Below are positions 40,081 through 61,824 of a DNA stretch of 64,000 nucleotides, piece by piece (position 1 is the first letter of the stretch; every line of letters starts with the position of its first letter). This DNA comes from an uncultured Candidatus Saccharibacteria bacterium. GTDB taxonomy: Bacteria; Patescibacteriota; Minisyncoccia; Phycocordibacterales; CAIZLB01. The stretch is taken from positions 85,151 to 149,150 of the forward strand of contig CAZVIP010000002.1 in the NCBI GenBank assembly GCA_964627085.1, given 5' to 3'. Position numbers and translations under genes: made by a program. A model generated the notes under the pieces. That model ran no database searches. It saw nothing but the letters and a program-made list of their open reading frames with translations, and was not told the DNA's origin.

Positions 40081-41547
<1,467 letters not shown>

Positions 41548-44020: not shown

Positions 44021-44767
44021 TTAATAGTGACTACTGAAACTCGAATGAGCACTCGCCTCTTGTTCGAGTTTTTTGATTTCCTGTTCTAGGCGTGCGTTCT
44101 CGGCAGTGAGACGCTTCACTTCATTTTCTTCTGTCATCTTCTTTGTACTCAAAATTGTATAACTGCGCTTTCTGGCATCGAGCTCTTTTTCCTTATACAT
44201 TTTATTACTTTTTTCATGACCAGATTCTGACTGCAATTTAGTTGCATCGTTAGTGAGGTGTGCAATTTTGACACTGAGGTGTTCAATGGCTTGATCTGTT
44301 GTGCGTACGAGTTCTTTCTCTCTTGTGATTTTTAATTCAAGCGCTTTTATTTCCTGCTCGTAGTGATATAGCTCTTTGTTTTCTTTATCAATTTGCAATC
44401 GACTGCGCTCGACATCTTCTTTATGCTTTGAAATTTCAAAAAGCATATCATTGTGTTTTGTGTAGAGTGATGCAATTTTTTCATCCTGCTCTTTCATTTC
44501 TCTCTCGGTCTCATGAACAAGAGCTTCTGATCTGACGAGTTCAGAGTTGAGGCGTCTAAGTTCTGTTTGTCTATGTGAAATCTCAATTTTATTTCTATCA
44601 AGGAGGCGCTTCTTTTCGACGAGAGATGTTTTTGCTCGTTCCTGGTCTTGTTTGTCTTTGAGCTCTTTGATATGAGCAAGACGCATACGCTCCGATAGCG
44701 CACCTTCATCCCTGACTGCAGTTTTTAAACCACTTAAACCTCCATTTTTATAAGATCCAAATACCAT
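44021..44767 (-). CDS. Coiled-coil protein (hypothetical)
   Basis: 248 aa, almost entirely heptad-like E/K/R/L-rich sequence. Confidence 0.45.
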   Translation of the reverse strand: MVFGSYKNGGLSGLKTAVRDEGALSERMRLAHIKELKDKQDQERAKTSLVEKKRLLDRNKIEISHRQTELRRLNSELVRSEALVHETEREMKEQDEKIASLYTKHNDMLFEISKHKEDVERSRLQIDKENKELYHYEQEIKALELKITREKELVRTTDQAIEHLSVKIAHLTNDATKLQSESGHEKSNKMYKEKELDARKRSYTILSTKKMTEENEVKRLTAENARLEQEIKKLEQEASAHSSFSSHY

Positions 44768-44800
44768 GTGTGTATTATAGCAAATTGGGAGCGTGGGTTG

Positions 44801-45325
44801 TTAATTGCGATACACATTCGGATACTGACCAAAGACAATGTGCCATTTTGAAATCTGGAGTTTCCCGAACCCTGCATCATCGAGCGCAAATTGCAGTGTT
44901 GATGTACCAAATGTTTCTATTGATATTATTGGTTTTCCGAAGCAATCGAGTGTATTTGCACTCTCTGGTATTTCACATGTTACTTTTTTGTTTTTAAGGC
45001 TGAAAATGATTTTGTCATTTGTGCCACCTCCGGCCGCCGTAACACTACCCCCACCAGTCGCACTGTTGTGATTTCCGCTCGCCACCTCCACAGATTCAGA
45101 CATTCGATACAGAGAGTCTAGATACAAAGATGCAAACAATAGCTGTTTGTAGTTCTGATGGTCATTGTTATCTTTTTTTAAATTATGCAGGACAGGTGTA
45201 AAAATGCGCGTACTGATAACAATAAGGACAGACAGAATGGCGAGCGAAACAATGAGCTCAACAATTGTGACTCCTGCACTTATATTAGTTTTTATTTCTT
45301 TTTTTGTTTTTCGATTAATGTGCAT
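44801..45325 (-). CDS. Type IV pilin/pseudopilin-like protein
   Basis: The N-terminus GVTIVELIVSLAILSVLIV is a prepilin-type cleavage/methylation helix. Confidence 0.6.
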   Translation of the reverse strand: MHINRKTKKEIKTNISAGVTIVELIVSLAILSVLIVISTRIFTPVLHNLKKDNNDHQNYKQLLFASLYLDSLYRMSESVEVASGNHNSATGGGSVTAAGGGTNDKIIFSLKNKKVTCEIPESANTLDCFGKPIISIETFGTSTLQFALDDAGFGKLQISKWHIVFGQYPNVYRN

Positions 45326-45385
45326 TTTTTCTTTGCTTATTTACCTTTTGTTTTTTACCTACATTGATCAATCCCAGCACACAGA

Positions 45386-46954
45386 CTATGTACTTGTTAG
45401 ATATAGCATCGATGTCGTCGTCCCCTCCTCGACACCATAGAGCGCATCAGGCGTACAATCAAAATCACTCAATATATTTTTTGTTTCAATGGTCAAAATT
45501 GGCGCAAGCGAAAATGTGATGTCTTGGATGTTTTTCTTTCCAAATAATATATTGGAGGAAAGAGATTCCCCGACAGATTTTTGACCAGCACCACCAGAGA
45601 TGTCATTCACAGTCTTCTTATAGATGATGAGAGAACTAGCAATATTATTTGTCATGGCTATGATGTATTTACCGCCTAACACCGCCATGATTTTAGTAAT
45701 ACTTTTATTTGGGTTTGCGCTGTATTGCTGATTTATATCTGTGTTTACATATGCACTCGAACTTGTAGGAGAAGCATTATTGTTAATTTGAACGCCAATC
45801 AATTCACTATTTCCCAGTGTTCGTCCAAGCAAAAGGCTTTTGTAAAAGACTGCCAGTGACTTCCCGTTTCCACTTGAACCTTCGGCATCAAAGCTGGTGA
45901 CACCAGACGAAATACCTCTGTCCCAGATTTCAACTTCAGGATCTTTTGCAGATACAGTAAATAGATGGGTGAAATTAAAATCAATATCACTCACACCCGC
46001 AGAGATCTCTGTACTACTTACATGTATGTCCCCGAGTATATTTGGCGTGCCCAATTGATTGTATATATTCGGTGTAAATGTTCCCAGATCCAATGAATAC
46101 AGTTCATCGCCTACATTTTTCTCGGCACCGATATATAGGTTTTTACCGTCTGTTTTGACAACTTTTGGCAGGGAGTGATTAATTGTCGATGAAGCCACGA
46201 GAATTCGGCCAATGTTTTTCTCGGAAAAACGTGAGGTCGGATCTGTCTTTAAAATCCAAATCGGAGAAGTATAACTGCGCTCAATAGCAAACAGTGTATC
46301 CTTGAACACCGCTGCATCAATGACACCAGGACCCAAAAATAGTTCCTGATTTTTCTGGAAGCTAGATGTAGAGATATTTTGCGCATTGTCTAAATACGCT
46401 TGCTGAGGCGGACGGTGCAGATTTTGTGTGAAAATATACATGTCAGGGTCTGTTGTTGATGCACTGTTTGTGCCTATATATAAATCATTCGTGTCAATAT
46501 ATGACCTTACATCTATTGTTGTCGGCAAATTTCGCGAATGATTAATTAAATCTATTTCATTTTTTTGAACTGAAATTTGATCGTTGTTTTTTGTGCTTAG
46601 TTTTTGAAAAAACAAATCACATGATTTTCGACCTGGTTGTAGGTTTATATACCCTACACTTTTTGTGGGATATATTTGCCCACCACCATATGGCGACACC
46701 TTCCTCAGGATATCGACTGTATTGTCCTTGTTGGTGGTCTTATGTATGAAAGCATCTATATCACTATGCGAAATCAAAAATGCAGACATAGGCAAAATAA
46801 CAAAAGCACATATAGCCAGAGTCGCGAGCAATTCAATCAAGATAAAACCTCGCGAACTATGGTTGCGACTGTATATCGAAAAACCATTCTGTCTTTTGCT
46901 TTGTGTGAGGATAGTTTTGTTCAGCATTATTTTTGCGAGATTTAATTTAAACAA
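45386..46954 (-). CDS. Large pilin-like protein (possible minor pilin or tip adhesin)
   Basis: The N-terminus SRGFILIELLATLAICAFVIL is a prepilin-like helix, followed by a 450 aa Ser/Thr/Asn-rich domain. Confidence 0.5.
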   Translation of the reverse strand: MFKLNLAKIMLNKTILTQSKRQNGFSIYSRNHSSRGFILIELLATLAICAFVILPMSAFLISHSDIDAFIHKTTNKDNTVDILRKVSPYGGGQIYPTKSVGYINLQPGRKSCDLFFQKLSTKNNDQISVQKNEIDLINHSRNLPTTIDVRSYIDTNDLYIGTNSASTTDPDMYIFTQNLHRPPQQAYLDNAQNISTSSFQKNQELFLGPGVIDAAVFKDTLFAIERSYTSPIWILKTDPTSRFSEKNIGRILVASSTINHSLPKVVKTDGKNLYIGAEKNVGDELYSLDLGTFTPNIYNQLGTPNILGDIHVSSTEISAGVSDIDFNFTHLFTVSAKDPEVEIWDRGISSGVTSFDAEGSSGNGKSLAVFYKSLLLGRTLGNSELIGVQINNNASPTSSSAYVNTDINQQYSANPNKSITKIMAVLGGKYIIAMTNNIASSLIIYKKTVNDISGGAGQKSVGESLSSNILFGKKNIQDITFSLAPILTIETKNILSDFDCTPDALYGVEEGTTTSMLYLTST

Positions 46955-46955
46955 T

Positions 46956-48026
46956 TTAATTTAGTTGATTCATAATCCCGTACAGTGGCGACAATATTCC
47001 ATAAGCCAAAATACCGACCAACAAACCAATGATGACCATAAGCACAGGCTCTGATATCTTTATCAAAAAGTTAATTTGATTGGAAAGTATGGTTTTATAG
47101 TAGCCACAAAGATCAGCAAACATTTTATTGTAAGTCGACGACTTCTCTGCTGTCTTTGCATATATTACCCATATCTCAGGCAGATTCTCGGCACTAATAA
47201 TCGCAGCAGAGAGATTGTTTCCCTCCTCGATTTGGTTGGCTATAAAATTGAATTTATTTTTAAAGTGAAGCGATCCTGAATCTGCAGCCACCCTCCTAAA
47301 AGACAAAGGTAGGTTGTGCGTATATTCTATGTGTAAATACAGTACAGAGACATAGTTTGCACACAAATAATTTATATAAAAATTTTTAATTTTTGGTATC
47401 TTCAAAATCAAATTTTCAAGCCAAGCTTGTACCCTGGCATCGCTTAAGGAAAAAAATACCCCAATTAATAAGAGCATATGAATAAAAAGCACCCACATAC
47501 CATGCGAACGCAGAATATGCGAACCAAATACCAAGGCCTTTGTAATCAAGCCACTCTCAGTACCTCCTGCAATGACAGGTAAAATATTTGGTATCACAAA
47601 GAATAAGACAAGTAATAACAAAACACTTGCTATGCACATAACAATGATTGGATAAATGGCAATTGTTACAATAGATGCCGTACGCGACTTTGATTCATCC
47701 AAAAGCCCGGCAATATGGTTGAGCACATGCGGTATTTTTCCAACCTTCTCTGCAGATATTATTAAGTCTAAATTTCCAGACCTCCGTGACAGATCGCTCA
47801 GTTCAAGCGCTTGTGAAAAATTCGCACCCCCGGCAAATCGATCGATGATTTTGGAATATGTATTTTTACCAAGACTTGTAAATGAATCTACAGGTGAAAT
47901 ACCCGCAGAAATCATGGACGACAACAATCTTATGTGCTGAATATCAATTTTTATTTGCTTTTCCTTTACAGCATTACTATTTTTTTGAAATTTATTTAAT
48001 CTGAGAATATATTTTATCTTATTCAT
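46956..48026 (-). CDS. pilC: Type IV pilus/T2SS platform protein (PilC/GspF family)
   Basis: It has the GspF-type duplicated cytoplasmic domain architecture with 3 TM helices. The segment YPIIVMCIASVLLLLVLFFVIP is typical. Confidence 0.7.
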   Translation of the reverse strand: MNKIKYILRLNKFQKNSNAVKEKQIKIDIQHIRLLSSMISAGISPVDSFTSLGKNTYSKIIDRFAGGANFSQALELSDLSRRSGNLDLIISAEKVGKIPHVLNHIAGLLDESKSRTASIVTIAIYPIIVMCIASVLLLLVLFFVIPNILPVIAGGTESGLITKALVFGSHILRSHGMWVLFIHMLLLIGVFFSLSDARVQAWLENLILKIPKIKNFYINYLCANYVSVLYLHIEYTHNLPLSFRRVAADSGSLHFKNKFNFIANQIEEGNNLSAAIISAENLPEIWVIYAKTAEKSSTYNKMFADLCGYYKTILSNQINFLIKISEPVLMVIIGLLVGILAYGILSPLYGIMNQLN

Positions 48027-48080
48027 ACTCTATTTTGCCTTATTACTTTATATTGTTTATTCGACCAATCACTCACTCAA

Positions 48081-49148
48081 TTACCGCATATATTTATTCA
48101 TTTCCTCGCGAGATATATATCCATCATCATAGAGACTTTGTATCCTATCTTTGAGAAGCAAGACACCATTTGTGCGTATAGTTTCAGCGATGCTATATGA
48201 TTCCTTTGACATGAGTAATGTACTCTTGAGTTGCTTAGTAAATTCAATCATTTCAAAAACAACCTTTGAGCCTGACAAAGTCCTCACTTTGCGTTGCGAG
48301 ACAAGAAGTGCAATAACTGATGCACATGAACTCGAGCCAACTCCGAGCGCATGCAATCTATCTAGAATTTCAAGTGCGGAAGGTGCGTGGATGGTGGCCA
48401 GAACAAGGTGTCCAGTGAGCGCTGCCTGTACTGCAAGACTTGCGGTGTCACTATCACGAATTTCACCAATCATGATGACATCAGGATCCTGCCTCAAAAC
48501 CCCGCGTAGTGCAGCATTAAATCCAAAACCATATTCTGTTTGAACTTTTATCTGTCTAATACCTGGCATAATCACCTCTACTGGATCTTCGAGCGTGACT
48601 ATCACCCTATTGTCTCGGCCAATCTCTGAGAGGCATGAATACAGTGTTGTTGTTTTACCTGAGCCAGTCGGCCCCGAAACCAAGACTAAACCAGATTCGT
48701 ACAATAAAACTTTTTTTAATAAAGTGAGATCAGTAATATCAATCCCAAGTTTCTCAAGATCAAATACGGTTCGAGTGGTTGAGGTTACGAAAAGTCTACA
48801 CACTGCGTTTTCACCAAAAACAGTTGGCGCTGTTGCAGCCCTGACATGTGTTGTATACGCAAGATATTTAAATACAAAAGACCCGTCCTGACTCCTATCA
48901 GTTATATCCAGCCTCATATTTGCCAATACTTTAGTACGACCAACAAGACTTTGACACTCGGCATTTTGAACAAAAGTATGGTAAGCAGTATTCCCAGATA
49001 TACGCAGATATACCTCACTGCCACCCTCATATATATCTATATGTAAATCACTTGCTCGAAAATCTATTGCAATTTCGAATAATATATCAAGTTTCTCTTG
49101 AATGACTTCGCCAATTAAATTTGTATTTCTATGTTTACTTTTTTTCAC
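48081..49148 (-). CDS. GspE/PilB-type secretion ATPase (short form lacking the N-terminal domain)
   Basis: Walker A is LVSGPTGSGKTTTLYSCL. Walker B and Asp box are RQDPDVIMIGEIRD. The His box AALTGHLVLATIHA favours PilB/GspE over PilT. Confidence 0.7.
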   Translation of the reverse strand: MKKSKHRNTNLIGEVIQEKLDILFEIAIDFRASDLHIDIYEGGSEVYLRISGNTAYHTFVQNAECQSLVGRTKVLANMRLDITDRSQDGSFVFKYLAYTTHVRAATAPTVFGENAVCRLFVTSTTRTVFDLEKLGIDITDLTLLKKVLLYESGLVLVSGPTGSGKTTTLYSCLSEIGRDNRVIVTLEDPVEVIMPGIRQIKVQTEYGFGFNAALRGVLRQDPDVIMIGEIRDSDTASLAVQAALTGHLVLATIHAPSALEILDRLHALGVGSSSCASVIALLVSQRKVRTLSGSKVVFEMIEFTKQLKSTLLMSKESYSIAETIRTNGVLLLKDRIQSLYDDGYISREEMNKYMR

Positions 49149-49269
49149 ACAGAGAGCATACAGAATGACAGCTTAAATTCTCATCAATTATATATAAATA
49201 ACAAAATTGTTTTTGCTCAATTTAAACGAAAGCTCGAGTTGTTTTTTCCGTGAATAGATCCGCAAATTT

Positions 49270-50193
49270 TTACTCAACAAATTTGATACCGTTCTCCTCA
49301 TCAACCACATAATCCCCTACCTTTGTTCGAAAAATATCGTAAGCTATGGCACCTGTACCAAATATTTGGCCGAGCCAACACGCGAGACTTCTGACATAAA
49401 AGCCACTTGTACATTCAATTTCAAATTTTATGCTCATATATGCAGGTTCAGAATTTTCATCTTTTATACTCGAGGTATTTGTCTTCTCTTTTTCCCATGA
49501 AGAAATTATTTCATTTTGTCTAAAATCTCCCTTAATTTTTTGAGCAAAGTTTATTGATTCATGATAAATTTTTGATTTTGGAATAAAACGGATATCAAGG
49601 CAGGATATATTTTCAAGCGCAACTTCCTGTGTTGGTAATTTTAAATTTACTTCATCTAAACTATGGTCTTTTGAATATTGAAAAAGAGGCACTCCATCAA
49701 CTGGCTTTGAAGAAAAGAATGGATATGAAAGCGTAAAAGTACCAATGATATCTTTTATATATACCTGTAACGCCTCAATAAAATCTTTTTTAATTATCCG
49801 GTCACTTTCAATTAGGCTTTGATTATTCGAGATTTTTTCAAATATCGTCTTTAGATTCTGTTTAGTTGATCCAGAATTTACAATTTCTTGATGAGAATTT
49901 AATGTATGCCATGTTAAAAAAGTATTGCTCGGATAAATCACACCGAGCCGGTCGAAACTATCAGTACATACACCAAAAACAACCTCAAATTCATAGGTCT
50001 TCTTTAAATCTAGATAGGTAGATTTTTTGGTTATTTCCTCGTCTTTTAGGACGATAAGAAGCCCTCTGGCGAGTGGATCTAGCCTACCCGCATATGTGAA
50101 GCTGGATGAGTCAAAACCCCCTCCAAGGTGGCTTTTTAGGCGTCCTAGAGCCTCGAGACAGGTCTCTCCGGTGTTCTTGTATAATAAGTACAT
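49270..50193 (-). CDS. TruB-like tRNA pseudouridine synthase with a long C-terminal extension (start uncertain)
   Basis: TYAGRLDPLARGLLIVL..EEITKKSTYLDLKKTYEFEVVFGVCTDSFD matches the TruB catalytic motif (GTLDP.A.G.L....G.ATK......K.Y). The longest ORF would overlap the hisS start by 38 bp, so a downstream Met was chosen. Confidence 0.55.
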   Translation of the reverse strand: MYLLYKNTGETCLEALGRLKSHLGGGFDSSSFTYAGRLDPLARGLLIVLKDEEITKKSTYLDLKKTYEFEVVFGVCTDSFDRLGVIYPSNTFLTWHTLNSHQEIVNSGSTKQNLKTIFEKISNNQSLIESDRIIKKDFIEALQVYIKDIIGTFTLSYPFFSSKPVDGVPLFQYSKDHSLDEVNLKLPTQEVALENISCLDIRFIPKSKIYHESINFAQKIKGDFRQNEIISSWEKEKTNTSSIKDENSEPAYMSIKFEIECTSGFYVRSLACWLGQIFGTGAIAYDIFRTKVGDYVVDEENGIKFVE

Positions 50194-50215
50194 AGACGCT
50201 ACAATCATAACTATC

Positions 50216-51514
50216 ATGCAAATAAAGTCCACTATTAGCACAGAACCATACAAAGGTGTCAGGGATTTCTATCCTGAAGACCAATTTATCCAAGAGTATA
50301 TCTTTAGCGTCTGGAACAAGGCAGTACAGAGTTTTGGATTTGAATCATACAATGCATCTGTTATTGAACCTGCAGAATTGTACAAAGCAAAATCTGGCCA
50401 GGAAATTGTAAATGAACAGACATATACATTCATCGACCGTGGCGACAGAGAAGTAACACTTCGACCAGAGATGACACCTACAGTTGCAAGACTGGTTGCA
50501 GGACGCAGACGCGAGCTCGGCTTCCCTCTTCGCCTTTATTCTATTCCAAATGTATTTAGATATGAGAGACCACAGCGTGGACGACTACGAGAACACTGGC
50601 AGTTAAACGTCGACATGTTTGGTAGTAAGCATATCAGCAGTGACATAGAGATGATTGAGATTTCATCACATATTATGAAATCTTTCGGTGCAGACACGAG
50701 TGACTTCATTATCAAAATCAGTAGCCGAAAACTTCTCAACTCTATTTTTTCAGAGTGGTATTCATTTGATGAAGAAAAGTCACATGCTCTCAAGAAACTC
50801 ATAGACAGAAAATCAAAAATGCCCGAAGCAGATTTCTATGCTGAAGCAGAAAAAATCGCAGGTAAACCTTTTTCATTCCTTAATTTTGAAAACGATAACC
50901 CAGAGCTTAGTGAGGCATTCGCTTTCCCAAATATTAAATCTGCATATGACGAACTTCAATCTGTTATCACAAACCTCAAAGCAAAAGGCATCACAAACAT
51001 AGAATTCGATCAGACACTTATCCGTGGCTTTGATTACTATACCGGTATTATTTTCGAGGTATTCGATACTCACCCTGAAAACAATCGATCACTCTTTGGT
51101 GGTGGACGCTATGATGACTTACTTAAGCTCTTCGGTATTGATGATGTGCCAGCCTGCGGCTTTGGTATGGGTGATGTAACTATCGCCGATTTCCTCCGTA
51201 CACGTAATTTGCTCCCTGCCTACAAAGCAGCAGCTGACTTGATTGTCTGCCCCCTCTCTGAGGACTCACTCGAATATTCAAGCGGACTCTCAGCAGAACT
51301 ACGAGCCAAAGGTATACATACATGTACAAATAATTCCTTCAAGAATGTACGAGACCTATTCAAAACAGCTGAAAAACTCAAAATCAAATACTGCATCATT
51401 ATCGGTGAAGACGAAGTGAAAAACCAGCAATATAAAATAAAAGACCTAGAGACGGGTGCAGAATTTAGTAATGTGGATGAAATCTTGGGTACTATCCTGG
51501 AACTTAGAAAATAA
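50216..51514 (+). CDS. hisS: Histidyl-tRNA synthetase
   Basis: YKGVRDFYPED...RYERPQRGRLREHWQLNVDMFG...GGGRYDDL are class II aaRS/HisRS motifs 1-3 together with HisRS-specific signatures. TATAAT at 50180-50185 is a likely -10 element. Confidence 0.85.
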   Translation: MQIKSTISTEPYKGVRDFYPEDQFIQEYIFSVWNKAVQSFGFESYNASVIEPAELYKAKSGQEIVNEQTYTFIDRGDREVTLRPEMTPTVARLVAGRRRELGFPLRLYSIPNVFRYERPQRGRLREHWQLNVDMFGSKHISSDIEMIEISSHIMKSFGADTSDFIIKISSRKLLNSIFSEWYSFDEEKSHALKKLIDRKSKMPEADFYAEAEKIAGKPFSFLNFENDNPELSEAFAFPNIKSAYDELQSVITNLKAKGITNIEFDQTLIRGFDYYTGIIFEVFDTHPENNRSLFGGGRYDDLLKLFGIDDVPACGFGMGDVTIADFLRTRNLLPAYKAAADLIVCPLSEDSLEYSSGLSAELRAKGIHTCTNNSFKNVRDLFKTAEKLKIKYCIIIGEDEVKNQQYKIKDLETGAEFSNVDEILGTILELRK

Positions 51515-51559
51515 ATAAGTTACAATCTTCAGATAACTTTAGAATATTCACATTTATTT

Positions 51560-52135
51560 ATGCGTAAAATTGTACTCGATATAGAAACCAGAAATACATT
51601 TCAAGAAGTAGGTAAGGCTGATCCAACATTACTCGATATCTCTTTGGTATGTATTCATGATTCAGAAACTGATTCCTATACGAGTTATCTGCAAGAGGAT
51701 TTAATGAAACTCTGGCCAATTCTTGAGAGAGCAGATGTTTTAATCACTTTCAATGGTGACCATTTTGATATTCCCCTTCTCGACAAATACTATTCTGGTG
51801 ATCTCACAAAAATCAAAAGCTTAGACATTCTCAAAGAGGTTCGTAAAGCCATTGGCTTCCGTGTTGGTCTCGACAATATCGCCAGTGCTACTTTGGGCAA
51901 AGGTAAGATTGGCCACGGGCTCGAAGCAATTGATTGGTGGCGCGCAGGTGAAATAGATAAAATTATCAAATACTGTATCGGTGATGTTCAAATCACCAAA
52001 GAAGTATACGACTATGCAATTGCCAACAATACCCTTAAATACAAAGAGGGTGAACTTGCAATTGAATTCAAAATAGACACATCAGAATGGGAGAAAAAAG
52101 AAGACAAAACTATGACATTTAGTTTGCCATTTTAA
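51560..52135 (+). CDS. Predicted DEDD-type 3'-5' exonuclease (RNase H-like fold, PolB-exonuclease-like)
   Basis: LDIETRN (DxE), FNGDHFDIPLL and YCIGDV contain the conserved acidic residues. Confidence 0.5.
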   Translation: MRKIVLDIETRNTFQEVGKADPTLLDISLVCIHDSETDSYTSYLQEDLMKLWPILERADVLITFNGDHFDIPLLDKYYSGDLTKIKSLDILKEVRKAIGFRVGLDNIASATLGKGKIGHGLEAIDWWRAGEIDKIIKYCIGDVQITKEVYDYAIANNTLKYKEGELAIEFKIDTSEWEKKEDKTMTFSLPF

Positions 52136-52306
52136 TTCGCCGTTCTGTCTTTTTAATTGACAAAACATATAAATATTGTAGTATGTTTTTTGGACGCAGT
52201 GATGACTACATCAGCGCTCATTAACTTCAGTAAAAACCTACGGGAGCAATCCCAAAAACAATAAAGGGCATATGCCCAACACCGCACAGAAAGGCGGTTT
52301 TGAAAA

Positions 52307-52978
52307 ATGGACACATCGAAACTTGAGGCACGCAAACCAGAATTGCTTGCCTATATCAAAAACTGGCTAGAGATGGAGGGCTTACTCCAACCCGGCCATG
52401 AAGTCATTCTCTCCATCTCTGTGGTGCCGAGCACCGCACTGAAGATTGAGTTTGATAACGACTCAGAAATTGACACACTTATGGCAATGCCACTGAAGCA
52501 ATTTCTGCAAGAACACAGGGAGCAAGGCAATAGAAACTGGGCGGTTGTGGCTAGCTTGCTGGAAAGGACCCCTTGCCTGTCTTTACTTGGTCAACTTGTC
52601 AGGATGAGTGAAAGGGATTTCTTAAAGCACAGAAATGTTGGCAGGAAGTCACTGGAAGTTGTGAAGTCCTCTCTCCTGAAACTCAATCCCCGCCTATCAT
52701 TTGGACAAGAACATCTCAGAATGGGGTTGCTTGAAAAAGCGGCACTTGAGTCGATGCCAGTTACATGCGCACAGATTAATCTCAAGAGCTTCACAGGTGA
52801 CCCGTTACTAAAACTCGACACCCTTGGGGACGTCTGTTCTGCTACGCATGATGAACTAAAACGTGCTTTTCACGCAGTTCCTAAGTGGACTGACGCGGTT
52901 GAATTAACTGAATTTGAAAAGGAAATCAATAGGCTCCGATACGAAATCAAGTTTTTCAACCTAAAGCCCAACTTCTAA
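52307..52978 (+). CDS. GC-rich hypothetical protein with two RNA-polymerase-alpha-CTD-like helix-hairpin-helix motifs
   Basis: VRMSERDFLKHRNVGRKSLEVVKSSLLKL resembles the rpoA alpha-CTD segment SVRSANCLK...LLKTPNLGKKSLTEIKDVL. A second similar unit is LGDVCSATHDELKRAF. Confidence 0.4.
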   Translation: MDTSKLEARKPELLAYIKNWLEMEGLLQPGHEVILSISVVPSTALKIEFDNDSEIDTLMAMPLKQFLQEHREQGNRNWAVVASLLERTPCLSLLGQLVRMSERDFLKHRNVGRKSLEVVKSSLLKLNPRLSFGQEHLRMGLLEKAALESMPVTCAQINLKSFTGDPLLKLDTLGDVCSATHDELKRAFHAVPKWTDAVELTEFEKEINRLRYEIKFFNLKPNF

Positions 52979-53069
52979 CCCACTCAGGCACACATTCGAG
53001 GTGCCGCAGCAAACCGCTGCGGCACCTTTTTCGTTTCACTTTTATGCAAATTTGCTATACTGACATGTA

Positions 53070-53825
53070 ATGAACCATACAGAGTACAAGCAAACGAATA
53101 AGCAAAACATTTTAATACCAATTTCAATTTTGGTCGCCGGACTTTGCATAGCTGGAGCTATTTACATGAACAGAAGTTCGGTTCCTGCACAAACCGTTAC
53201 TATTCCAAATGAAAAGAAAATAAACATTGACGCCTTTGTCCCTGTATCTAAGAACGATCACATACTTGGGAACCTAGAGACAGCAGAAGTGGTTATCGTT
53301 GATTATTCTGACCTTGAATGTCCATACTGTAAAATACTTCACGAAAACCTTATGCAGGTTCACAAAGACTTTGAATTAAATCCAAAAGTGGCATGGGTGT
53401 ACAGACATTACCCTATGAGTTTCCACTCAAAAGCACCAAAAGAAGCTGAGGCTACAGAATGTGTCAATGAGCTCGGAGGTAATAAAGCATTCTGGGATTA
53501 TATTCATATGATTTATGCAAATACAGAATCAAACAATACGCTTGATTCAAAAAATCTTCCGCTCTTTGCCGAAAAAGTTGGTGTAGATAAAACTGCATTT
53601 GAAGCATGTCTCACTTCAGGTAAATATGCCACAAAAATAAAAGAGAGTTATGACAATGCACTCAAATTAACAAAAACTGAAATATCACCTTTCACAGTTA
53701 TTGTTGCGAAAGGTAAAGTCATTCCACTTGTTGATGAAGAAGGTCAAGGTTTCGGAGCAGGACTTCCATACCGCGCACTTAAATCATTAGTTGATCAATT
53801 CTTGAACTCTCCTGTGATTGAATAA
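53070..53825 (+). CDS. DsbA-family thiol:disulfide oxidoreductase, membrane-anchored
   Basis: There is an N-terminal TM. The thioredoxin active site is ECPYC, with a downstream cis-Pro region. Confidence 0.75.
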   Translation: MNHTEYKQTNKQNILIPISILVAGLCIAGAIYMNRSSVPAQTVTIPNEKKINIDAFVPVSKNDHILGNLETAEVVIVDYSDLECPYCKILHENLMQVHKDFELNPKVAWVYRHYPMSFHSKAPKEAEATECVNELGGNKAFWDYIHMIYANTESNNTLDSKNLPLFAEKVGVDKTAFEACLTSGKYATKIKESYDNALKLTKTEISPFTVIVAKGKVIPLVDEEGQGFGAGLPYRALKSLVDQFLNSPVIE

Positions 53826-53861: not shown

Positions 53862-56800
53862 CTACTCCCCTAGTAAATAATTTTCAAAAGCTTGCACGGC
53901 CTCAAAGTCGTTTTTGAAATTCTGTTCTGCAATTTCTTTTGGGATATCAAATTCAAGGGCTTTGATTTTTCTATATACTGCTATGCAGAGTCGCTTTAGC
54001 CTATCCACTTCTTCATCTTCGAGTACGAGACTGGTACTCTGTATTCTTTTCTTACTTCGACCACTCTCACTATCAACATCTACATCTGCGTCACCCGATA
54101 CAGAACCACCAAAAGTTACAGGCTCGATAAAATCAATTGTTCCGCATATTACCTTTTTACCATACAGCTTCGCCTTCTCATCGTTTTGACCATTTCGATC
54201 AGCATGACTTGCAACATACACAGAATTTTCTAGTAATAATTTGTAGAAGAGGAGCTGATTCTTGTACTGATGTACTTTGAGTGCTTCATCAGATTTTGGA
54301 CTTTCAAAACTATCAAAAGCTCGCCCAGTCTTATAGTCGTACACAACCAGCCCATCGTCGGTGATAGTAACTTTGTCTATTTTTCCTGTGATAAAGACTT
54401 TTGCATTTACGCTTTCATTTAGGCTTTTGTTTGCACCTTCACCTGAGCCACCATTTTCATGATCATCTGATATAAGTATATGTTCGCGTGCAAAATCATA
54501 TTCCGGTATATCTGTCTCGCTAAACTCCCCTGCTTTTTGATTAAAGTACACACGGAGTGCATCCTGACCACGCTTAAGATGAATACGAAAATCATTAGGA
54601 TGCATTTTCTCTTTTTTCAAAAACAATTCAAATGTCTGCAACATATCATCAATCTTTGGTAGTACATGATTCTTTTTCAAATCATTGAGTGCGTATTCAA
54701 GTGTTGCATGAATAGCAGAACCATATGATCCTGGCAAAGATTTACTCTGCGGAAAACGGAGCAAATTTTGCTCAAAGAACAGACGAGGTCCACCCTTTGG
54801 TATATTTAAATAATTATTTAAATGCGTGACAGATAATTTGTAATTCTCTACAAGCCCTGCGAGAAGCGCTTCCTCTGTATCAATAAATGGTGCCGTGTGA
54901 TATGAAGTTGCCGCAGTCTCAAGTAGTTCACCAATGTCGAGCTGGGCTGAGCCTTCTCCGGCGGTAGTACCCGCACCAGAAATATTTACACCTGCGATAT
55001 CTACACCTACACCGACAACACTAGCAGTACCCTGTGCATCCGCACCCGTCTTGATAGTAGGTAATAAATCAACAAGGAACCTGAGTATGCTCGCTGGCTT
55101 ACCACTGTCTTTAACTTGATGTGAAGTTAGGTACAGTTGTTCACGTGCACGTGTCAGTGCAACGTAAAATAATCGGAGCTGATCGTCTTCGCTATCCCCC
55201 GCAGGTTCAATCGGCAAGTTCATCGGGAAAGAAATTTTTGATGGATGTGACCTCGATGCCCATTCATCATCTTGGCAAGAAAGTACAAAAACAACCTTGA
55301 ACTCCAAACCTTTTGACTTATGTGCGGACATAAGTTGAACAGCACTTCTTGCAGTGATAAACGGACTTTCATCATTTAATTTGAGGCCATTTTTCTCATA
55401 GACATCAACAAAACGAATAAGATCACTTGCATATAAAATCCTGAATCTGTTTGATGCATGTGCACTGTTTTGAGCAACAGAATCACCGGCTGTGGCCAAG
55501 GCACTATCTGATGCAGTGTTGCCTGCAGGAGCAGAATCACTTTCAAAACCATTAAATGACCGAAGTGAATTAATGAATACCCGCAAACTTGAGAGGAATG
55601 TTAAATATTCTGCGCGTGCATGAGTAAAGCGCTCATTTGAAAAATAATAATCTTTGAATGGACTGATGAAGTCCTTGGTATCAGTACATACTTTGTTATG
55701 ATTTTTGCCATCGCCTACAATAGCACCAGCGTTCTCACCTCCACGTGCAGTCGTAATTTCACCCACAGCATTTTCCAAATCCTCATCTTGATCTGTTGTG
55801 TCTGGCGTTAATTTAATATGAGCACCGACGAGTTTGTCGATAACACGCTCGAGTGGAAGGCTCTTGCTATCAACAGATAGGTTTATGAAAAAGAGTGCGA
55901 TGTCACGAATAAGCTGGCTATCATATTCATGCATGATTTCGAGCCATGTTTTTTTGTCACGTCTTGCAGCGAGAGATATTTTCCAGATATCAATGCGAGG
56001 TATATTCCAAAAAACAAAACTTAATATTTCTGGGAGCAGGTCATCGCGTACTGCGATATATTCCTCTGTATTAATACCAGAAGAAATAAAACGCATCATG
56101 GTTATGAGCTCGCGGATATGCGGCTCTGCAAAGACGCTTTGCTCCCGCTCATACTTAAGCGGAACTTGAGCAAGCTTCATAAATGGCACAAATTCCTCAA
56201 GCGTACCGTGCGTACGAGCAATTACCGCAATATCATTTGGCGACACACCTGCATCGATCAAAGATTTAATTTTATTAGAAACAAATTTATATTCATGCAG
56301 TGATGTCTCGTGCTCAGAATATTCAACAATATTATCCGCGGCGAGAGAGCGCGAAACTAATTCCTTTGATAAATCAGGGATTAAGTTTTCAAGTCGCTTT
56401 TCACCTTTGCGAATAATAGACATTGATAAATTCAAAATATCCTGTGTCGAGCGATAGTTCTCTGTCATTGTCACAAGCTCTACATCGGTAAATCTATGCC
56501 TAAAATCAAGGATATTTGAGAGTTCTGCGCCCTGGAATTTATAAATAGCCTGATCATCATCTCCTACCACCATGATGTTTGGTTTTCCTTCATGCTGTGC
56601 CGCACTTGTGAGAAGCGATAATATACGCATCTGGGCATTGTTTGTATCCTGGAATTCATCAACCAATAGATATTGAAATTGCTCCTGCAGTTCAAACATC
56701 AATCTTGGTTCATTACCAAGCGCTGATATCACATCCAAAATCATATCGTCAAAATCAAAATACCCTCTTCTGTATAATTCCGATTGATAATCTTGATAGA

Positions 56801-57698
56801 CATTTATGAATGAATATATCTTTTTCAGCTGAAGACGATCTCTAAAAACGTGATTACCCGCATCATCTTTTGGAAACCATTTCTTTTTCCATTCTGATAG
56901 TGATTCATTTTTTCCAGATGCTTCACACTTTGCAATTACCTCGGCCACTGACAAGGCAAATGATTCCTCAAGTGGGTGAAATATTGAGAATAATTTTTTA
57001 ACCTCTTCATTGTGCTCTCTTAGAGTTTGTTTTTTGGAGAAAAGCGCAAGCGCGGCACGCAGTTCATCCAGTGTACCCTTGCCGATTCTACTACTTATAA
57101 CAGGCACAAAAATGCTCTCGATTTGATCAAAGACCACTTCATTATCTGCAACAATGGCTTTGAGTTCGATTGGCCTGAGACCTGACTTTTTGACATGACC
57201 AATAGCACTCTGTGCTGACTTCAAAAAAGAATATCCCATCTCCGGATGATATGCTTTCAATGGATTATCATGATCCATTTTATTAAAAATTCTTTCCAGT
57301 AAATCTATCTGAGTGACCGGATCTGCAGGCGTAAAAGTGGCACTATGATAAAAAAACTCTCCATACTTTCGAATGATATCTACACAAAAATTATGAAATG
57401 TATGAATGCTGACCTGATATGCCCTGTCACCAATCAGACGCGCAAGTCTCTCGCGCATATTCTGTGCCGCAGAATCCGTAAAAGTTAAACATAAAATATT
57501 TGAAGGAAAAGCCTGTGTCGTCCTCAAAATCTGAGCTACACGCATACTCAAAATCTCTGTCTTACCTGAACCAGGCCCCGCAACCACAAGAAGCGGTCCA
57601 TCAACTGTATCGACCGCTTTGCGCTGGGCTTTATTTAATTTCTTATATCTATCACTAAAAATAGATTCAAAATCAGTAGTTTTTGCTTGTGCTGCCAT
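53862..57698 (-). CDS. AddA/UvrD-like ATP-dependent helicase fused to a C-terminal RecB-family (PD-(D/E)xK) nuclease domain
   Basis: The N-terminus LLVVAGPGSGKTEILSMRVAQIL is the UvrD motif I. LLVDEFQDTN is motif II. The C-terminus VVYDYKTG is the RecB nuclease D-Y-K motif. Low-complexity Ala/Gly/Ser insertions are present. Confidence 0.75.
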   Translation of the reverse strand: MAAQAKTTDFESIFSDRYKKLNKAQRKAVDTVDGPLLVVAGPGSGKTEILSMRVAQILRTTQAFPSNILCLTFTDSAAQNMRERLARLIGDRAYQVSIHTFHNFCVDIIRKYGEFFYHSATFTPADPVTQIDLLERIFNKMDHDNPLKAYHPEMGYSFLKSAQSAIGHVKKSGLRPIELKAIVADNEVVFDQIESIFVPVISSRIGKGTLDELRAALALFSKKQTLREHNEEVKKLFSIFHPLEESFALSVAEVIAKCEASGKNESLSEWKKKWFPKDDAGNHVFRDRLQLKKIYSFINVYQDYQSELYRRGYFDFDDMILDVISALGNEPRLMFELQEQFQYLLVDEFQDTNNAQMRILSLLTSAAQHEGKPNIMVVGDDDQAIYKFQGAELSNILDFRHRFTDVELVTMTENYRSTQDILNLSMSIIRKGEKRLENLIPDLSKELVSRSLAADNIVEYSEHETSLHEYKFVSNKIKSLIDAGVSPNDIAVIARTHGTLEEFVPFMKLAQVPLKYEREQSVFAEPHIRELITMMRFISSGINTEEYIAVRDDLLPEILSFVFWNIPRIDIWKISLAARRDKKTWLEIMHEYDSQLIRDIALFFINLSVDSKSLPLERVIDKLVGAHIKLTPDTTDQDEDLENAVGEITTARGGENAGAIVGDGKNHNKVCTDTKDFISPFKDYYFSNERFTHARAEYLTFLSSLRVFINSLRSFNGFESDSAPAGNTASDSALATAGDSVAQNSAHASNRFRILYASDLIRFVDVYEKNGLKLNDESPFITARSAVQLMSAHKSKGLEFKVVFVLSCQDDEWASRSHPSKISFPMNLPIEPAGDSEDDQLRLFYVALTRAREQLYLTSHQVKDSGKPASILRFLVDLLPTIKTGADAQGTASVVGVGVDIAGVNISGAGTTAGEGSAQLDIGELLETAATSYHTAPFIDTEEALLAGLVENYKLSVTHLNNYLNIPKGGPRLFFEQNLLRFPQSKSLPGSYGSAIHATLEYALNDLKKNHVLPKIDDMLQTFELFLKKEKMHPNDFRIHLKRGQDALRVYFNQKAGEFSETDIPEYDFAREHILISDDHENGGSGEGANKSLNESVNAKVFITGKIDKVTITDDGLVVYDYKTGRAFDSFESPKSDEALKVHQYKNQLLFYKLLLENSVYVASHADRNGQNDEKAKLYGKKVICGTIDFIEPVTFGGSVSGDADVDVDSESGRSKKRIQSTSLVLEDEEVDRLKRLCIAVYRKIKALEFDIPKEIAEQNFKNDFEAVQAFENYLLGE

Positions 57699-57732
57699 TT
57701 GATTATTATACTTGGCAACGGCTTATATATCT

Positions 57733-57785
57733 TGTTGACATCAATGATTTTATATTTTATTATCAAAATCGAATTCGTTCATTTC
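57733..57785 (+). promoter_or_regulatory. Conserved promoter/operator copy 1: TTGACA, 17 bp spacer, TATTAT, plus a downstream CGAATTCG palindrome
   Basis: This matches the region at 59418-59469 at 51 of 53 positions, including the consensus -35 and -10 hexamers and the 8 bp palindrome cgaattcg. It lies 71 nt upstream of the ATG at 57857. Confidence 0.55.
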
Positions 57786-57856
57786 ACCCACCAGTTCACG
57801 CTGTTTCAACACTTGATTCAGCAAACCCAACAACAAAATAGAAAGATACCCCACCT

Positions 57857-58471
57857 GTGAATGATTTACCCTCATCCCTCAAAATGGAGATTTGGTTCAT
57901 TGTTAATTTTCTCGAACGTTTTGCGAACTTTACACAGAAAACAATCGGCATCACATGCTTCGGGCTTGCCCGATTGTGTATGATTTTCTCTGTCTCGAGC
58001 TCTATAATCGCGATTATATTTGCAGTGATCCGTCCTGTTATCAAATATCCAAACCTCGCTGTCTATTCCATAATCCCATTTCTTATTCTTGTAATAATGA
58101 TTTTGTCCGGGTATTCATTTTTAACAGAAATCACCCCGATATCACTAAAAACAAGAATTACCTTTGGTTACAAGGCCATGCAGTGTGGCATGAAAAATCC
58201 ATTCATGATTATCCCTAGATTTAGTTTATGTGGTGCACTTCCTGCATTTGTCCTAAAGTGCTACTTCGTATCCACTGGTGATTGGCGTATAATTTTACTG
58301 AATATCCACCAAATGGAAGTGTATTGGCTTGCGGTAGCATTCTCATCGTGCACCCCAAGTGATTGTGGAAAATCACTACTTGGTAAAGGCTTTGATCGGG
58401 CCAAGAAAACCCTGTCATCCTTGGCTCCTGGCAAACACGCTGATCCGATCGCAGAACCAAGCCCTGCGTAA
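57857..58471 (+). CDS. Membrane protein, paralog A (hypothetical, 3-4 TM helices, Cys-containing C-terminal region)
   Basis: It shares its architecture and motifs (NPFMIIPRF, EVYWLAVAFSSCTPSD) with the 59527-60150 product (NPYMIMGRK, ETYWVAVALSCCTPDHP). Confidence 0.5.
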   Translation: MNDLPSSLKMEIWFIVNFLERFANFTQKTIGITCFGLARLCMIFSVSSSIIAIIFAVIRPVIKYPNLAVYSIIPFLILVIMILSGYSFLTEITPISLKTRITFGYKAMQCGMKNPFMIIPRFSLCGALPAFVLKCYFVSTGDWRIILLNIHQMEVYWLAVAFSSCTPSDCGKSLLGKGFDRAKKTLSSLAPGKHADPIAEPSPA

Positions 58472-58504
58472 ATCTCTAGCACTGAACCTATTCATCAACC
58501 ATCA

Positions 58505-58538
58505 ACGGCCTCCGGACTTAACTCCGGAGGCCGTTTTA
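58505..58538 (+). terminator. Intrinsic terminator: acggcctccgg-acttaact-ccggaggccgt followed by ttta
   Basis: An 11 bp perfect stem. Confidence 0.6.
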
Positions 58539-58635
58539 CCTATTTGATCCAAACCAAATTCAAGCCAGTGCAAAAACCTACACATATAATATGTAAGCCG
58601 CCCGATGCATCATGTGCATCGGGCGGTAAATCAAA

Positions 58636-59310
58636 TCAGGACGAGACCAAGGCAAAACCTTTCTGGTTAAGAATATCGGCTATGACATCGCACTGTGCCT
58701 TTTTCAGACATTGCCATCTCCAAGAACAAAGTGATTCGATTGACTCCTTAGTCAAACCTGAGTCCACTGCTCTCTTGAAAAGTGTCCTAAAGGCAACAAT
58801 ATCCTTCAGACTTACTACAAAATTCCAGGCCGAGCTATATACCCACGATTCATTTCTAACACTTTCTTCGAAGAGGACTTTCCCCAAAGTATCTGCAAAT
58901 ACATGAATCGGTCTTTCATACATGTGCAGACGCCAGCAAAAGTCACCTTGAACATAGTCAACTTCCTCGCGGGCGAGTTTCCAGTAAACTTCTCTAATTT
59001 CACTTTCCAAGAGTAAATTGGATTGCAAAAGTCCTGAAGTCTTGGCTATATCTCGGGTAGGTTTTTGCATAAGCATCTCCCTTTTGAGCTCGAATGCCCG
59101 TTTATCACACGCATACAATCGCTTCAATGCATATGCCTCGATGTCGATGGTCTTATTCCTCGCAAAGCTTTTTCGGCCTTGCCAATGCTTAGTTCCACCT
59201 GTTCTAAACATTTGCCTTAGGTCTGCAGCGTTTACATCCAGGACGAATTCATCGTCCGGGAATCGAGGAGCAAGCTTTCTCCTCTTTACTTTCGCTTTCT
59301 TTTTCTTCAT
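58636..59310 (-). CDS. Hypothetical basic protein (224 aa) lying between the two paralogs
   Basis: The N-terminus is Lys-rich (MKKKKAKVKRRK). No recognisable motif. Confidence 0.4.
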   Translation of the reverse strand: MKKKKAKVKRRKLAPRFPDDEFVLDVNAADLRQMFRTGGTKHWQGRKSFARNKTIDIEAYALKRLYACDKRAFELKREMLMQKPTRDIAKTSGLLQSNLLLESEIREVYWKLAREEVDYVQGDFCWRLHMYERPIHVFADTLGKVLFEESVRNESWVYSSAWNFVVSLKDIVAFRTLFKRAVDSGLTKESIESLCSWRWQCLKKAQCDVIADILNQKGFALVSS

Positions 59311-59417
59311 CTGAGTAAAGGGGTTAAAGGTTGAATTGAAAAGAATTTGTTATTCCAAAGACAATATATAGTTTCCTATGCCCACCGTCAACGTTCTGCT
59401 TTGCATATACGATATAG

Positions 59418-59469
59418 TTGACATCAGTAATTTTATATTTTATTATCAAAATCGAATTCGTTCATTTCA
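59418..59469 (+). promoter_or_regulatory. Conserved promoter/operator copy 2: TTGACA, 17 bp spacer, TATTAT, plus a CGAATTCG palindrome
   Basis: See copy 1. It lies 57 nt upstream of the ATG at 59527. Confidence 0.55.
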
Positions 59470-59526
59470 ATAGGTGCACCGTCCCGCACCACCATCTCAC
59501 AGACCCTAACCCCAACCCAAAGCAGT

Positions 59527-60150
59527 ATGCCTGACATATTCAACCTAATTGATCTCATCAAAAGAATCGAAATCTTTTTGATCGACAAAACACTTCAACC
59601 CCTCGCCCGCCTCAGTCAACGCAACCTTGGTCTCGATTGTTTCAATCTTGCAAAAATCGCAATGGTTGTCTCAATTGTCGTCCAGAGTTTTGGCTTATGG
59701 GTGGCCATTGGTCATTTACGCCTATTGCTCAAATATGGAAAAGGGAGCGCGTTTACGACATTTCTTTTCCTTGGTATCCTAACCGCGACGTTTGTAATCA
59801 GCATTCTCTTTTTCAAAAAAAACGGGGAATACTCGTTGATCAAAAAGAAAAAAGCTGGCTACGACGCAGTCGAGCGAGGGGCATGCAACCCATACATGAT
59901 CATGGGCCGGAAATGCCTCTTTTTCCTCCTTGTATACCTGTATAAGCAAATAACACAGCTAATACATGGTGAAAGTTGGTATCTTGGCTTCCAGGGTGCC
60001 TTCCAGCTGGAGACATACTGGGTTGCAGTGGCATTATCCTGCTGCACACCAGATCATCCATCACGCTCATGGAGAAAGAAAGACAAGGCAGTAGAAATGG
60101 CTCCGGCTGAATCACACCCCATACCAAGCCCGATTCCAGCGGAAGCCTGA
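59527..60150 (+). CDS. Membrane protein, paralog B
   Basis: See paralog A. Confidence 0.5.
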   Translation: MPDIFNLIDLIKRIEIFLIDKTLQPLARLSQRNLGLDCFNLAKIAMVVSIVVQSFGLWVAIGHLRLLLKYGKGSAFTTFLFLGILTATFVISILFFKKNGEYSLIKKKKAGYDAVERGACNPYMIMGRKCLFFLLVYLYKQITQLIHGESWYLGFQGAFQLETYWVAVALSCCTPDHPSRSWRKKDKAVEMAPAESHPIPSPIPAEA

Positions 60151-60188
60151 CCCGCTCTCCACCTTGTGAATCATTCTTTTTCAAGAAT

Positions 60189-60249
60189 TAAAACGTATCA
60201 CCAACTTTGCACAATTGTGCACCGTAGGTGATACGTTTTCTTTTTTTTA
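60189..60249 (+). terminator. Strong intrinsic terminator: aaaacgtatcacc...ggtgatacgtttt followed by ctttttttt. The loop contains a nested 14 bp palindrome, tgcacaattgtgca.
   Basis: A 13 bp stem with a T-run of at least 8. The loop palindrome is at 60207-60220. Confidence 0.7.
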
Positions 60250-60313
60250 AGTTAAAACAAAAACACATTGCTGACTTTGCGGATTTTGCACCGGAAGCAA
60301 TATCCTTTTCTTA

Positions 60314-60385
60314 GCCTCAGAACAAATAAAAACACCCTCCCTTGCGTATCTTTGCGTGGGAGGGTGTTTTTATTTGTTCTGAGGC
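60314..60385. repeat. 28 bp perfect inverted repeat with a 16 nt spacer, immediately 3' of the rpoD stop codon. It could form a very stable hairpin and act as a bidirectional terminator.
   Basis: The arms at 60314-60341 (gcctcagaacaaataaaaacaccctccc) and 60358-60385 (gggagggtgtttttatttgttctgaggc) are exact reverse complements. Confidence 0.75.
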
Positions 60386-61824
60386 TAATAATTCTTAAGC
60401 CTATTCACCTTCTCATGCTGCCTGATTTTTTCATGAGCCTTGGCTTCAATCTGTCGGATTCGTTCACGTGTGACACCGAACATCTTTCCTACTTCTTCGA
60501 GTGTGTGCTGGATACCATCGCTGAGACCGTGGCGGAGAGCGAGAATTTCTCGCTCTTTTTCAGATAAGTCGCCGAGAATTTCATTGACCTGATCTGCAAG
60601 AATTCTTCGAGATGATTCCTGGTCTGGAGAAAGAATTTTATCATCTGGGATAAAGTCTCCAAACATAGACTTGTCATCGCCATCTTCACCAACTGGCGCG
60701 TCGAGAGATACAGTATTCTGATCGATCTTCTCAATCATATATACTTTTTCAGGTTCGATACCCATCTCTGTTGCGATTTCCTCTGGAAGTGGTTCACGCC
60801 CGAGATCCTGGAACAGCCTTCGTACTACCTGCTTGTATTTAGCGATAGTTTCCACCATGTGAACCGGCACACGAATTGTTCGTGACTGATCAGCGAGTGC
60901 ACGCGTAATAGATTGTCTAATCCACCATGTCGCATATGTTGAGAATTTGAATCCTTTTGACCAGTCGAATTTATCTACAGCTTTGAACAAACCAAGGTTA
61001 CCTTCCTGGATAAGGTCGAGAAGTGTGAGATCAGGGCTTCGGTTTGCATATTTCTTTGCAATAGAAACTACGAGTCGGAGGTTTGCTTTTGCGAGCAAGT
61101 TCTTTGCTTCATCGTCACCAAGAGCAATTCTTTTGGCGAGCTCTTTTTCTTCATGTGCATTAATAAGTGGATACTGACCAATTTCCTTGAGGTACATTTG
61201 GATAGAGTCGTATGTATCGCTCTTTGATGTACTGTATTTTTTTAGAATATCTTCTGCATCTTTATTAAAATCAAGAAGCCCTCCTCCTTCGAGAACATCA
61301 ACTCCAGCAACAGAAAGTGTTGTATAGAGTTCATCGAGGAACATGACATCATCTTCGATGTGAGGAAATGATTTGAGAATTTCATCGTATGTAACGAAAC
61401 CTCTGTCCTTACCTTTCTGAATCAAATCATCAGCTTTGTGTACCATGTCATGCTTTGCTCTTGAAATTGATCGAAGCTGGGCCTTTTCATCTTTTTCTTG
61501 TGCTTCACTTTTTTCAGGAACCGCATGGTGCTTAGCATGTGATTTTGGATCAACTTTTGCTGAATCTTTTACATGTTCGTCTCGAGTATTTTTTGATGAA
61601 AAAGCAGCACCCTTCGCAGCGTGTTTCGCACTCGCTTTGACCGCATTTTTTGTAGGAGCTTTTTTAGGTGCAACTTTTTTTGCCTTAGCTGGTTTTGCAG
61701 AAGTTTTTGTTACAGCTTTTTTTGTAGTTGCTTTAGCAGCCATAGATTTAGTCTTTTTTGTGGCAGAAGTTGGAGTGGCAGATTTCATCTTTTTTTCTTT
61801 TGTGGGTTTTGTGTTTTTCTTCAT
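60385..61824 (-). CDS. rpoD: RNA polymerase primary sigma factor with a Lys-rich N-terminal extension
   Basis: Region 2 is [40 protein letters not shown] and region 4 is [10 protein letters not shown]...[23 protein letters not shown]. The N-terminal ~100 aa are KKAxK repeats. Confidence 0.9.

Follow-up and report, generated by a model that had tools for sequence, protein, structure and literature searches.

The reuse of promoter segments of 50-100 nucleotides (nt) at identities of at least 80% has been described (PMC3488235). There, a putative mobile promoter is an upstream sequence longer than 50 nt, with at least 80% identity to another one within the same genome and with flanking coding sequences (CDSs) that do not align (PMC3488235). 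Here, a repeat of this kind is described from a 64,000-nt stretch of DNA (the window) of an uncultured Candidatus Saccharibacteria bacterium (GenBank assembly GCA_964627085.1, contig CAZVIP010000002.1, positions 85,151 to 149,150). Its two copies, block A and block B, lie upstream of two membrane-protein genes, gene A and gene B. The locus is an example of a known phenomenon, namely promoter propagation or the concerted evolution of a short regulatory tract. It resembles the putative mobile promoters of Matus-Garcia, Nijveen & van Passel (2012, PMC3488235) in that the copies share 53 nt at 96% identity (58 nt at 93%), lie within -150 to -50 of the start codons, and are flanked by CDSs that do not align as DNA, the upstream CDSs being unrelated and blastn giving no nucleotide alignment between CDS A and CDS B. 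The family size of two is also the commonest case in that work. In contrast to those promoters, no mobile-element vehicle is visible here, and the downstream genes are ancient paralogs, with 29% amino acid identity over 200 amino acids (aa; E=1e-22). Since the downstream genes are paralogous, it is as possible that a promoter shared from their ancestor was retained or converted as that one was transferred to a new gene. On balance, it is likely that the promoter was recently copied or converted between the two loci, with selection for common strong expression probably keeping the copies alike.

The core of the block is 53 nt long and runs from TTGACA to TTTCA (57734/5-57786 and 59417/8-59469). 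A preliminary description of this DNA had reported a near-identical 53-bp element upstream of two genes, and aligning the two upstream regions confirmed it, returning 51 of 53 identical positions within the 58-nt repeat. The final 40 nt of the core are perfect between the copies. Both mismatches sit in the -35-proximal part of the spacer, where constraint is lowest; elsewhere in the spacer, and over the first 16 bases predicted to be transcribed, the copies are identical. Sensitive blastn (word 7) detected no similarity between units A and B outside the block, so the edges of the repeat are sharp. A third copy was not found in the window with a 21-mer or 52-mer query at up to three mismatches, and shuffled sequence likewise gave none. 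In the Logan assemblies, a contig of 1703 bp, present in at least 20 samples, covers exactly 57757-59459 and has both ends within the identical 40-mer. Logan contigs of the helicase gene to the left of block A terminate at about 57776, also within the repeat, and copy B is traversed uninterrupted by one Logan contig. The assembly breaks inside the identical 40-mer are as expected for a true repeat. A larger tandem duplication including the 5' end of the helicase gene was considered and rejected, as the helicase and ORF224, the open reading frame (ORF) between genes A and B, are unrelated and an in-register 18-mer match is isolated.

In both copies, TTGACA-17-TATTAT matches the sigma-70-type consensus at 11 of 12 positions. 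Matches of this quality or better occur three times in the 64 kb when both strands are counted (128 kb of strand); two of them are copies A and B, and the third is intragenic. The promoter is oriented toward each gene, and the distance from the -35 to the start codon is 122 nt for gene A and 109 nt for gene B. The block is therefore predicted to comprise a strong sigma-70-type promoter and the ~16 bases transcribed first, and it would fire toward the membrane-protein gene at both loci. The elements named in the preliminary description (the -35, a 17-bp spacer, the -10 and an 8-bp palindrome) are each present in both copies, and its promoter reading holds at the level of prediction.

Genes A and B were also correctly recognized there as encoding two related but highly diverged membrane proteins of ~205 aa (204 and 207 aa), each of which carries at least two strongly hydrophobic helices. 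Gene callers choose an alternative ATG at 57884 for gene A, which gives a protein of 195 aa. The AlphaFold2 model of the gene B product has 6-7 helices, with a predicted local distance difference test (pLDDT) score of 87 and a predicted template modelling (pTM) score of 0.79. The two genes are very old paralogs, and they are saturated at neutral sites. Each one is a self-contained monocistronic unit composed of a promoter, a leader of 70-90 nt, a CDS and a terminator. The predicted leader of gene A is ~86 nt long, C/A-rich and G-poor, and has no Shine-Dalgarno sequence; that of gene B is ~73 nt long and C/A-rich.

Promoter function constrains the hexamers and little else. Copies A and B are 96% identical, which exceeds the 91.5-93.9% identity of orthologous DNA of two strains. 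Because spacer bases that the promoter does not need are identical as well, recent copying is indicated rather than selection alone. The earlier proposal of "selection or gene conversion" provided the right frame. We propose that a promoter segment was recently copied between the loci of two ancient paralogs. By one route, gene conversion would have acted between ancestrally homologous upstream regions. By the other, promoter A would have been captured when the gene-B cassette formed, or the reverse. The copy would probably have been retained for providing the same strong, co-ordinated expression to both paralogs. Both the recency of the copying and co-regulation as its selective benefit are inferred from the sequence. 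The situation resembles concerted evolution in that a short near-identical tract persists in one genome while its surroundings have diverged to saturation. It differs in that the tract is only 53-58 bp long, non-coding and coincident with a functional unit; in addition, the coding regions are too diverged to recombine, and two copies alone demonstrate no conversion event.

Comparison with a related strain revealed that gene B is variable. The comparison strain is represented by a 2003-bp contig (L019; Logan SRR27977625), which was found through the 90%-identity cluster of ORF224. It aligns with 58209-59375 of the window at 93.9% identity and then with 60236/60284-60940 at 91.5%. The contig keeps the 3' end of gene A, ORF224 and rpoD, and it is without block B, the leader, gene B and the terminator (~890 bp), which are replaced by about 10-45 bp of unrelated sequence. 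Since block B and gene B are absent from this related strain, the unit was gained or lost after the strains split. Codon changes between the two strains comprised 26 synonymous and 11 non-synonymous in ORF224, 18 and 0 in the C-terminus of RpoD, and 8 and 6 in the C-terminus of gene A. As the divergence is mostly synonymous, purifying selection acts on ORF224 and gene A, which are thus real genes. At the L019 junction, a 9/9 match (CCGCACCAC) to the gene-B leader was found (roughly p=0.07), which weakly hints at a deletion scar in the other strain.

Several points weigh against recent copying as set out above. Purifying selection on a large protein-binding site could still be the cause of the identity. 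The block edges coincide with hexamers, the -35 on the left and an opposite-strand -35-like sequence on the right, and edges bounded in this way look functional, unlike those of a random conversion tract. Further copies may exist beyond the 64-kb window in the rest of the genome, as the contig is 156 kb long and the genome is larger. Promoter activity and the transcription start site (TSS) are predictions from sequence only. Lastly, if the cassette was deleted in the L019 strain, gene B would be old at its site, and conversion would be favoured over capture. The features on which these arguments draw are listed in Table 1.

Table 1. Coordinates of the repeat block, its associated genes and signals, and neighbouring features (window positions unless a locus is named)
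Feature	Position	Strand	Remarks
Repeat copy A	57729-57786	+	direct repeat with copy B, 58 nt, 93% identical
Repeat copy B	59412-59469	+	direct repeat with copy A, 58 nt, 93% identical
-35 TTGACA	copy A 57735-57740; copy B 59418-59423	+	sequence match
-10 TATTAT	copy A 57758-57763; copy B 59441-59446	+	17 nt after -35
Predicted TSS	copy A ~57770-57771; copy B ~59453-59454	+	from promoter position
Palindrome CGAATTCG	copy A 57770-57777; copy B 59453-59460		8 bp, perfect
TTCGTTCA in block	copy A 57774-57781	+	overlaps palindrome
TTCGTTCA/TTCGTTCC sites outside block	3560-3567; 17821-17828; 42091-42098; 39370-39377	+; -; -; +	
Opposite-strand promoter-like match, copy A	57759-57787	-	GTGAAA-17-GATAAT, 9/12
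Opposite-strand promoter-like match, copy B	59470..59442	-	TTGAAA-17-GATAAT, 10/12
Gene A	57857-58471	+	204-aa membrane protein
Hairpin terminator after gene A	58504-58535	+	13-bp G+C-rich stem, -26 kcal/mol, z = -7.8, then TTTTA
Gene B	59527-60150	+	207-aa membrane protein, gene A paralog
Hairpin terminator after gene B	60183-60248	+	-29 kcal/mol, z = -8.8, then TTTTCTTTTTTTT
Strain-variable cassette (block B, leader, gene B, terminator)	59392-60283		boundaries approximate: left 59376-59395, right 60258-60283
ORF224	58636-59310	-	basic, all-helical; 42 K+R vs 29 D+E
ORF224 promoter	59391..59363	-	TTGACG-17-TATATT; kept as TTGACT-17-TATATT in strain without block B
UvrD-type helicase with PD-(D/E)XK nuclease domain	53862-57698	-	1278 aa; window neighbour
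UvrA + GIY-YIG + UvrC-RNaseH fusion	10683-14660 (L003)		1325 aa; family member directly upstream
DnaE	3281-6859 (L005)		family member directly upstream of dnaE

The proteins encoded by genes A and B belong to a small family. A word-indexed search of 5.8 billion proteins returned only the two proteins themselves. When 1.84 billion representatives were searched exhaustively with a HMMER profile, ~26 relatives were recovered over their full length (185-260 aa). The family alignment contains the conserved motifs Q[RK]xxGxDCF and ACTPLPPxKSKLR and the invariant residues G35, C38, F39, C173, T174, P175 and S181. The two invariant cysteines are located one each in the GxDCF and CTP motifs. No significant profile or fold match was obtained against Pfam, NCBIfam and PDB folds. 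The A/B family consists of rare, unannotated, helical membrane proteins of ~200 aa, and a confident model shows none of the known folds. A phage or defence origin was rejected for both the A/B family and ORF224, with no PHROG matches and no viral loci.

Loci carrying relatives were searched with a sub-alignment, as the full family profile is too diverse. Five such loci (L002-L006), with one copy each, were obtained, of which three bear the label uncultured Candidatus Saccharibacteria and the other two the label "bacterium". None of the five was found to be syntenic with the window. A family-wide upstream element was likewise rejected, as comparison of the upstream regions of L002-L006 with the block gave nothing common beyond chance. 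Because these upstream regions are unrelated, the block is genome-specific rather than an ancestral regulatory site of the family. Repair or replication genes adjoin family members in three of the six loci, namely the helicase gene in the window, a UvrA-UvrC fusion in L003 and dnaE in L005. The UvrA-UvrC fusion of L003 is itself unusual. Just beyond the helicase gene in the window, a DsbA-like thioredoxin-fold protein is encoded at 53070-53825 (+). With its two invariant cysteines, the A/B family could conceivably have a thiol-redox role.

Selection on a shared operator has been considered as another cause of the identity. In this model, genes A and B are jointly repressed by a dimeric protein that binds at the CGAATTCG palindrome (-1 to +7), and the block stays identical through selection on both the site and the promoter. 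The palindrome lies at the predicted TSS in both copies, which is a classical repressor position, and conservation continues 16 nt past the TSS. The block is a near-consensus promoter among weak promoters, a kind that usually needs repression. As in the lac O1 and LexA-box operators, the palindrome is centred at ~+3/+4 of a strong promoter with a potential small regulon. In contrast to them, it measures 8 bp rather than the usual 14-20 bp, is statistically unremarkable and has no cognate regulator identified, and it does not fit the GAAC-N4-GTTC spacing of Gram-positive LexA boxes. The dyad has no extension, and of random windows drawn from this sequence, 18% of those of 53 bp and 7% of those of 24 bp contain a perfect 8-bp palindrome; CGAATTCG itself is expected 0.74 times per window. 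Such cores are usable as operators elsewhere, as an unrelated metagenomic promoter carries ATACGAATTCGTAT twice, in the spacer and at +1. ORF224, being basic and the divergent neighbour of copy B, is a conceivable regulator, but it has no helix-turn-helix or other domain match and its structure model is unusable. It also persists in the L019 strain, from which block B and gene B are missing. Transcription-factor family matches were absent from all 10 nearby genes scanned with Pfam (44021-53825). Moreover, an operator leaves the identity of the AT-rich spacer unexplained, and the upstream regions of distant family members share no motif. From the repressor operator suggested in the preliminary description, the palindrome and its position stand; the dyad is statistically unremarkable, and no cognate regulator was found among the genes scanned. 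A shared operator as the cause of the identity is rather unlikely, if still credible. The metagenomic promoter with two ATACGAATTCGTAT cores, TTGACAATAATACGAATTCGTATTATTATAGAGTACGAATTCGTATTAAGGAGG, is near-consensus. It was seen on contigs L007, L010, L011 and L012 of four metagenomes, one of which is a European hare gut co-assembly, and it probably belongs to another organism, where it would be under tight repression.

The block could also be a symmetric bidirectional promoter, made of two face-to-back promoters with overlapping -10 elements, from which transcription would reach the membrane gene to the right and the helicase gene or ORF224 to the left. The bidirectional arrangement reported as commonest has -10 elements that pair with each other at positions 2 and 6, which places the divergent TSSs 18 bp apart (Warman et al., bioRxiv 10.1101/2020.01.31.928960). 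Both copies contain an opposite-strand match, and in copy A, GATAAT (57764..57759) overlaps TATTAT with positions 2 and 6 base-paired; copy B is arranged likewise. The arithmetic of 29+29-5 = 53 nt equals the block length, and both copies lie in divergent intergenic regions. The block therefore resembles the described promoters in its overlapping -10 elements, in predicted TSSs ~18 bp apart and in its location between divergent genes (bioRxiv 10.1101/2020.01.31.928960). In contrast to them, the opposite match is at chance level: once TATTAT is given, a partner of at least 9/12 occurs in 14% of random flanks and one of at least 10/12 in 5.7%. The conserved block does not include the first base of the opposite -35, which is G in copy A and T in copy B. 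Furthermore, the helicase gene has its own perfect TATAAT at 57710..57705, 6 nt before the ATG, in a leaderless-type arrangement, and ORF224 has its own promoter, which is kept in the strain without block B. With these promoters, neither leftward gene needs the block. Divergent transcription from the block may occur and is unneeded to explain the locus, and a bidirectional origin of the conservation is judged improbable. A different possibility is that the segment from +1 to +16 is an RNA element of the 5' leader acting in stability, processing or translation, alongside which the promoter is conserved. TTCGTTCA occurs five times in the window; in four cases it stands in sense orientation at the head of a C/A-rich leader (genes A, B, 3668 and 16271). 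The leader of gene 41661, which like 3668 and 16271 is a hypothetical gene, has TTCGTTCC at its head, and TTCGTTC is among the three most enriched 7-mers of upstream regions. The enrichment of TTCGTTCA loses significance, however, once the 46 8-mers of the block are corrected for, and its one-mismatch variants show no intergenic enrichment. The leaders of A and B have no significant or shared RNA fold (z = -0.5 and -0.6) and no Rfam match. In related genomes, the leaders do not contain the motif. These results make a leader element very unlikely. Least probable of all, to the point of being scarcely tenable, is that the block belongs to a short dispersed repeat, such as a miniature inverted-repeat transposable element (MITE) or a repetitive extragenic palindromic (REP)-like element, that by chance lies upstream of both genes. 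The inspected sequence is 64 kb of the genome, and assemblers break at the block, which marks it as repeated without showing how many times. The two copies in this window, however, point the same way and are almost equally far from paralogous genes. Terminal inverted repeats, flanking direct repeats or a target-site duplication were not seen at the block copies. An exact 24-mer core was found neither in 185,579 species-representative genomes (GTDB) nor in IMG/VR, JGI metagenomes scanned for the TTGACA-N17-TATTAT-N6-CGAATTCG architecture only gave nothing homologous, and blastn found no match in phages or plasmids. The dispersed-repeat scenario that the preliminary description had named as its refutation is thus without support, with two copies in the window and none in the collections searched.

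ORF224 agrees with the earlier account of a basic hypothetical gene on the opposite strand between genes A and B. No homologue or DNA-binding domain was detected for it in Pfam, NCBIfam, PHROG or PDB, and the single-sequence structure model has a pLDDT of 39. As ORF224 and its promoter persist in the strain without block B, ORF224 is independent of that block. Between gene B and rpoD, long hairpins follow one another at 60183-60246, 60267-60301 and 60311-60388, the last reaching -60 kcal/mol. Their loops are related (ACTTTGCR...TGCACC / CTTGCGTATCTTTGCG), their stems are different, and the number and stems of the modules differ in the related strain (L019 reverse strand, ~1200-1440). They may form a family of modules, either terminators or REP-like. 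A riboswitch or known RNA in the leaders was rejected for want of an Rfam match, and generic hairpin matches were obtained solely at the 60311-60388 terminator. The RpoD homologue that follows (60385-61824, -) has an N-terminal extension of ~130 aa, which is Lys/Ala/Thr-rich and of low complexity.

In the window as a whole, a Shine-Dalgarno-like sequence precedes just 3 of 52 start codons, and a TGnTAnAAT-type -10 box is located 5-10 nt before the start codon in many genes. This suggests that leaderless mRNAs may be widespread in the window. Long C/A-rich, G-poor leaders belong to a minority of genes (3668, 16271, 19619, A, ORF224 and B), with the highest G+C contents at third codon positions in the window. 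Gene 3668 has a promoter (TTGACA-18-TATTGT-13-TTCGTTCAC) with a loose resemblance to the block. The other content of the window is ordinary chromosomal core and includes a type IV pilus ATPase and platform protein, TruB, HisRS, RpoD, DnaG and RpoC. An 813-bp stretch upstream of the enolase gene (39304-40116) contains no ORF of at least 120 aa and has stops in all three forward frames, and it gave no Rfam match at the gathering threshold.

The most informative new facts are the strain-variable gene-B cassette and the small, fold-novel membrane-protein family. Beyond the new family and its strain-variable copy, the locus is a fairly ordinary case of promoter reuse. A further reading, for which we see only a slim chance, is that the block is a portable promoter-leader module that switches on accessory genes and was recruited with the B cassette. 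In that case, one repressor would act at CGAATTCG/TTCGTTCA, and a DNA-damage signal would be possible. Such a signal was considered because of the repair and replication genes beside family members. If this were true, the A and B membrane proteins would be factors of the envelope or of division that Saccharibacteria-like bacteria induce upon damage. Genes A and B define a rare unannotated membrane-protein family, one copy of which is strain-variable. For genetic work in Saccharibacteria-like organisms, the block could also serve as a strong promoter part, and a reused strong promoter of this type would offer a simple handle on co-regulation in a reduced, uncultured genome with few recognisable regulators.

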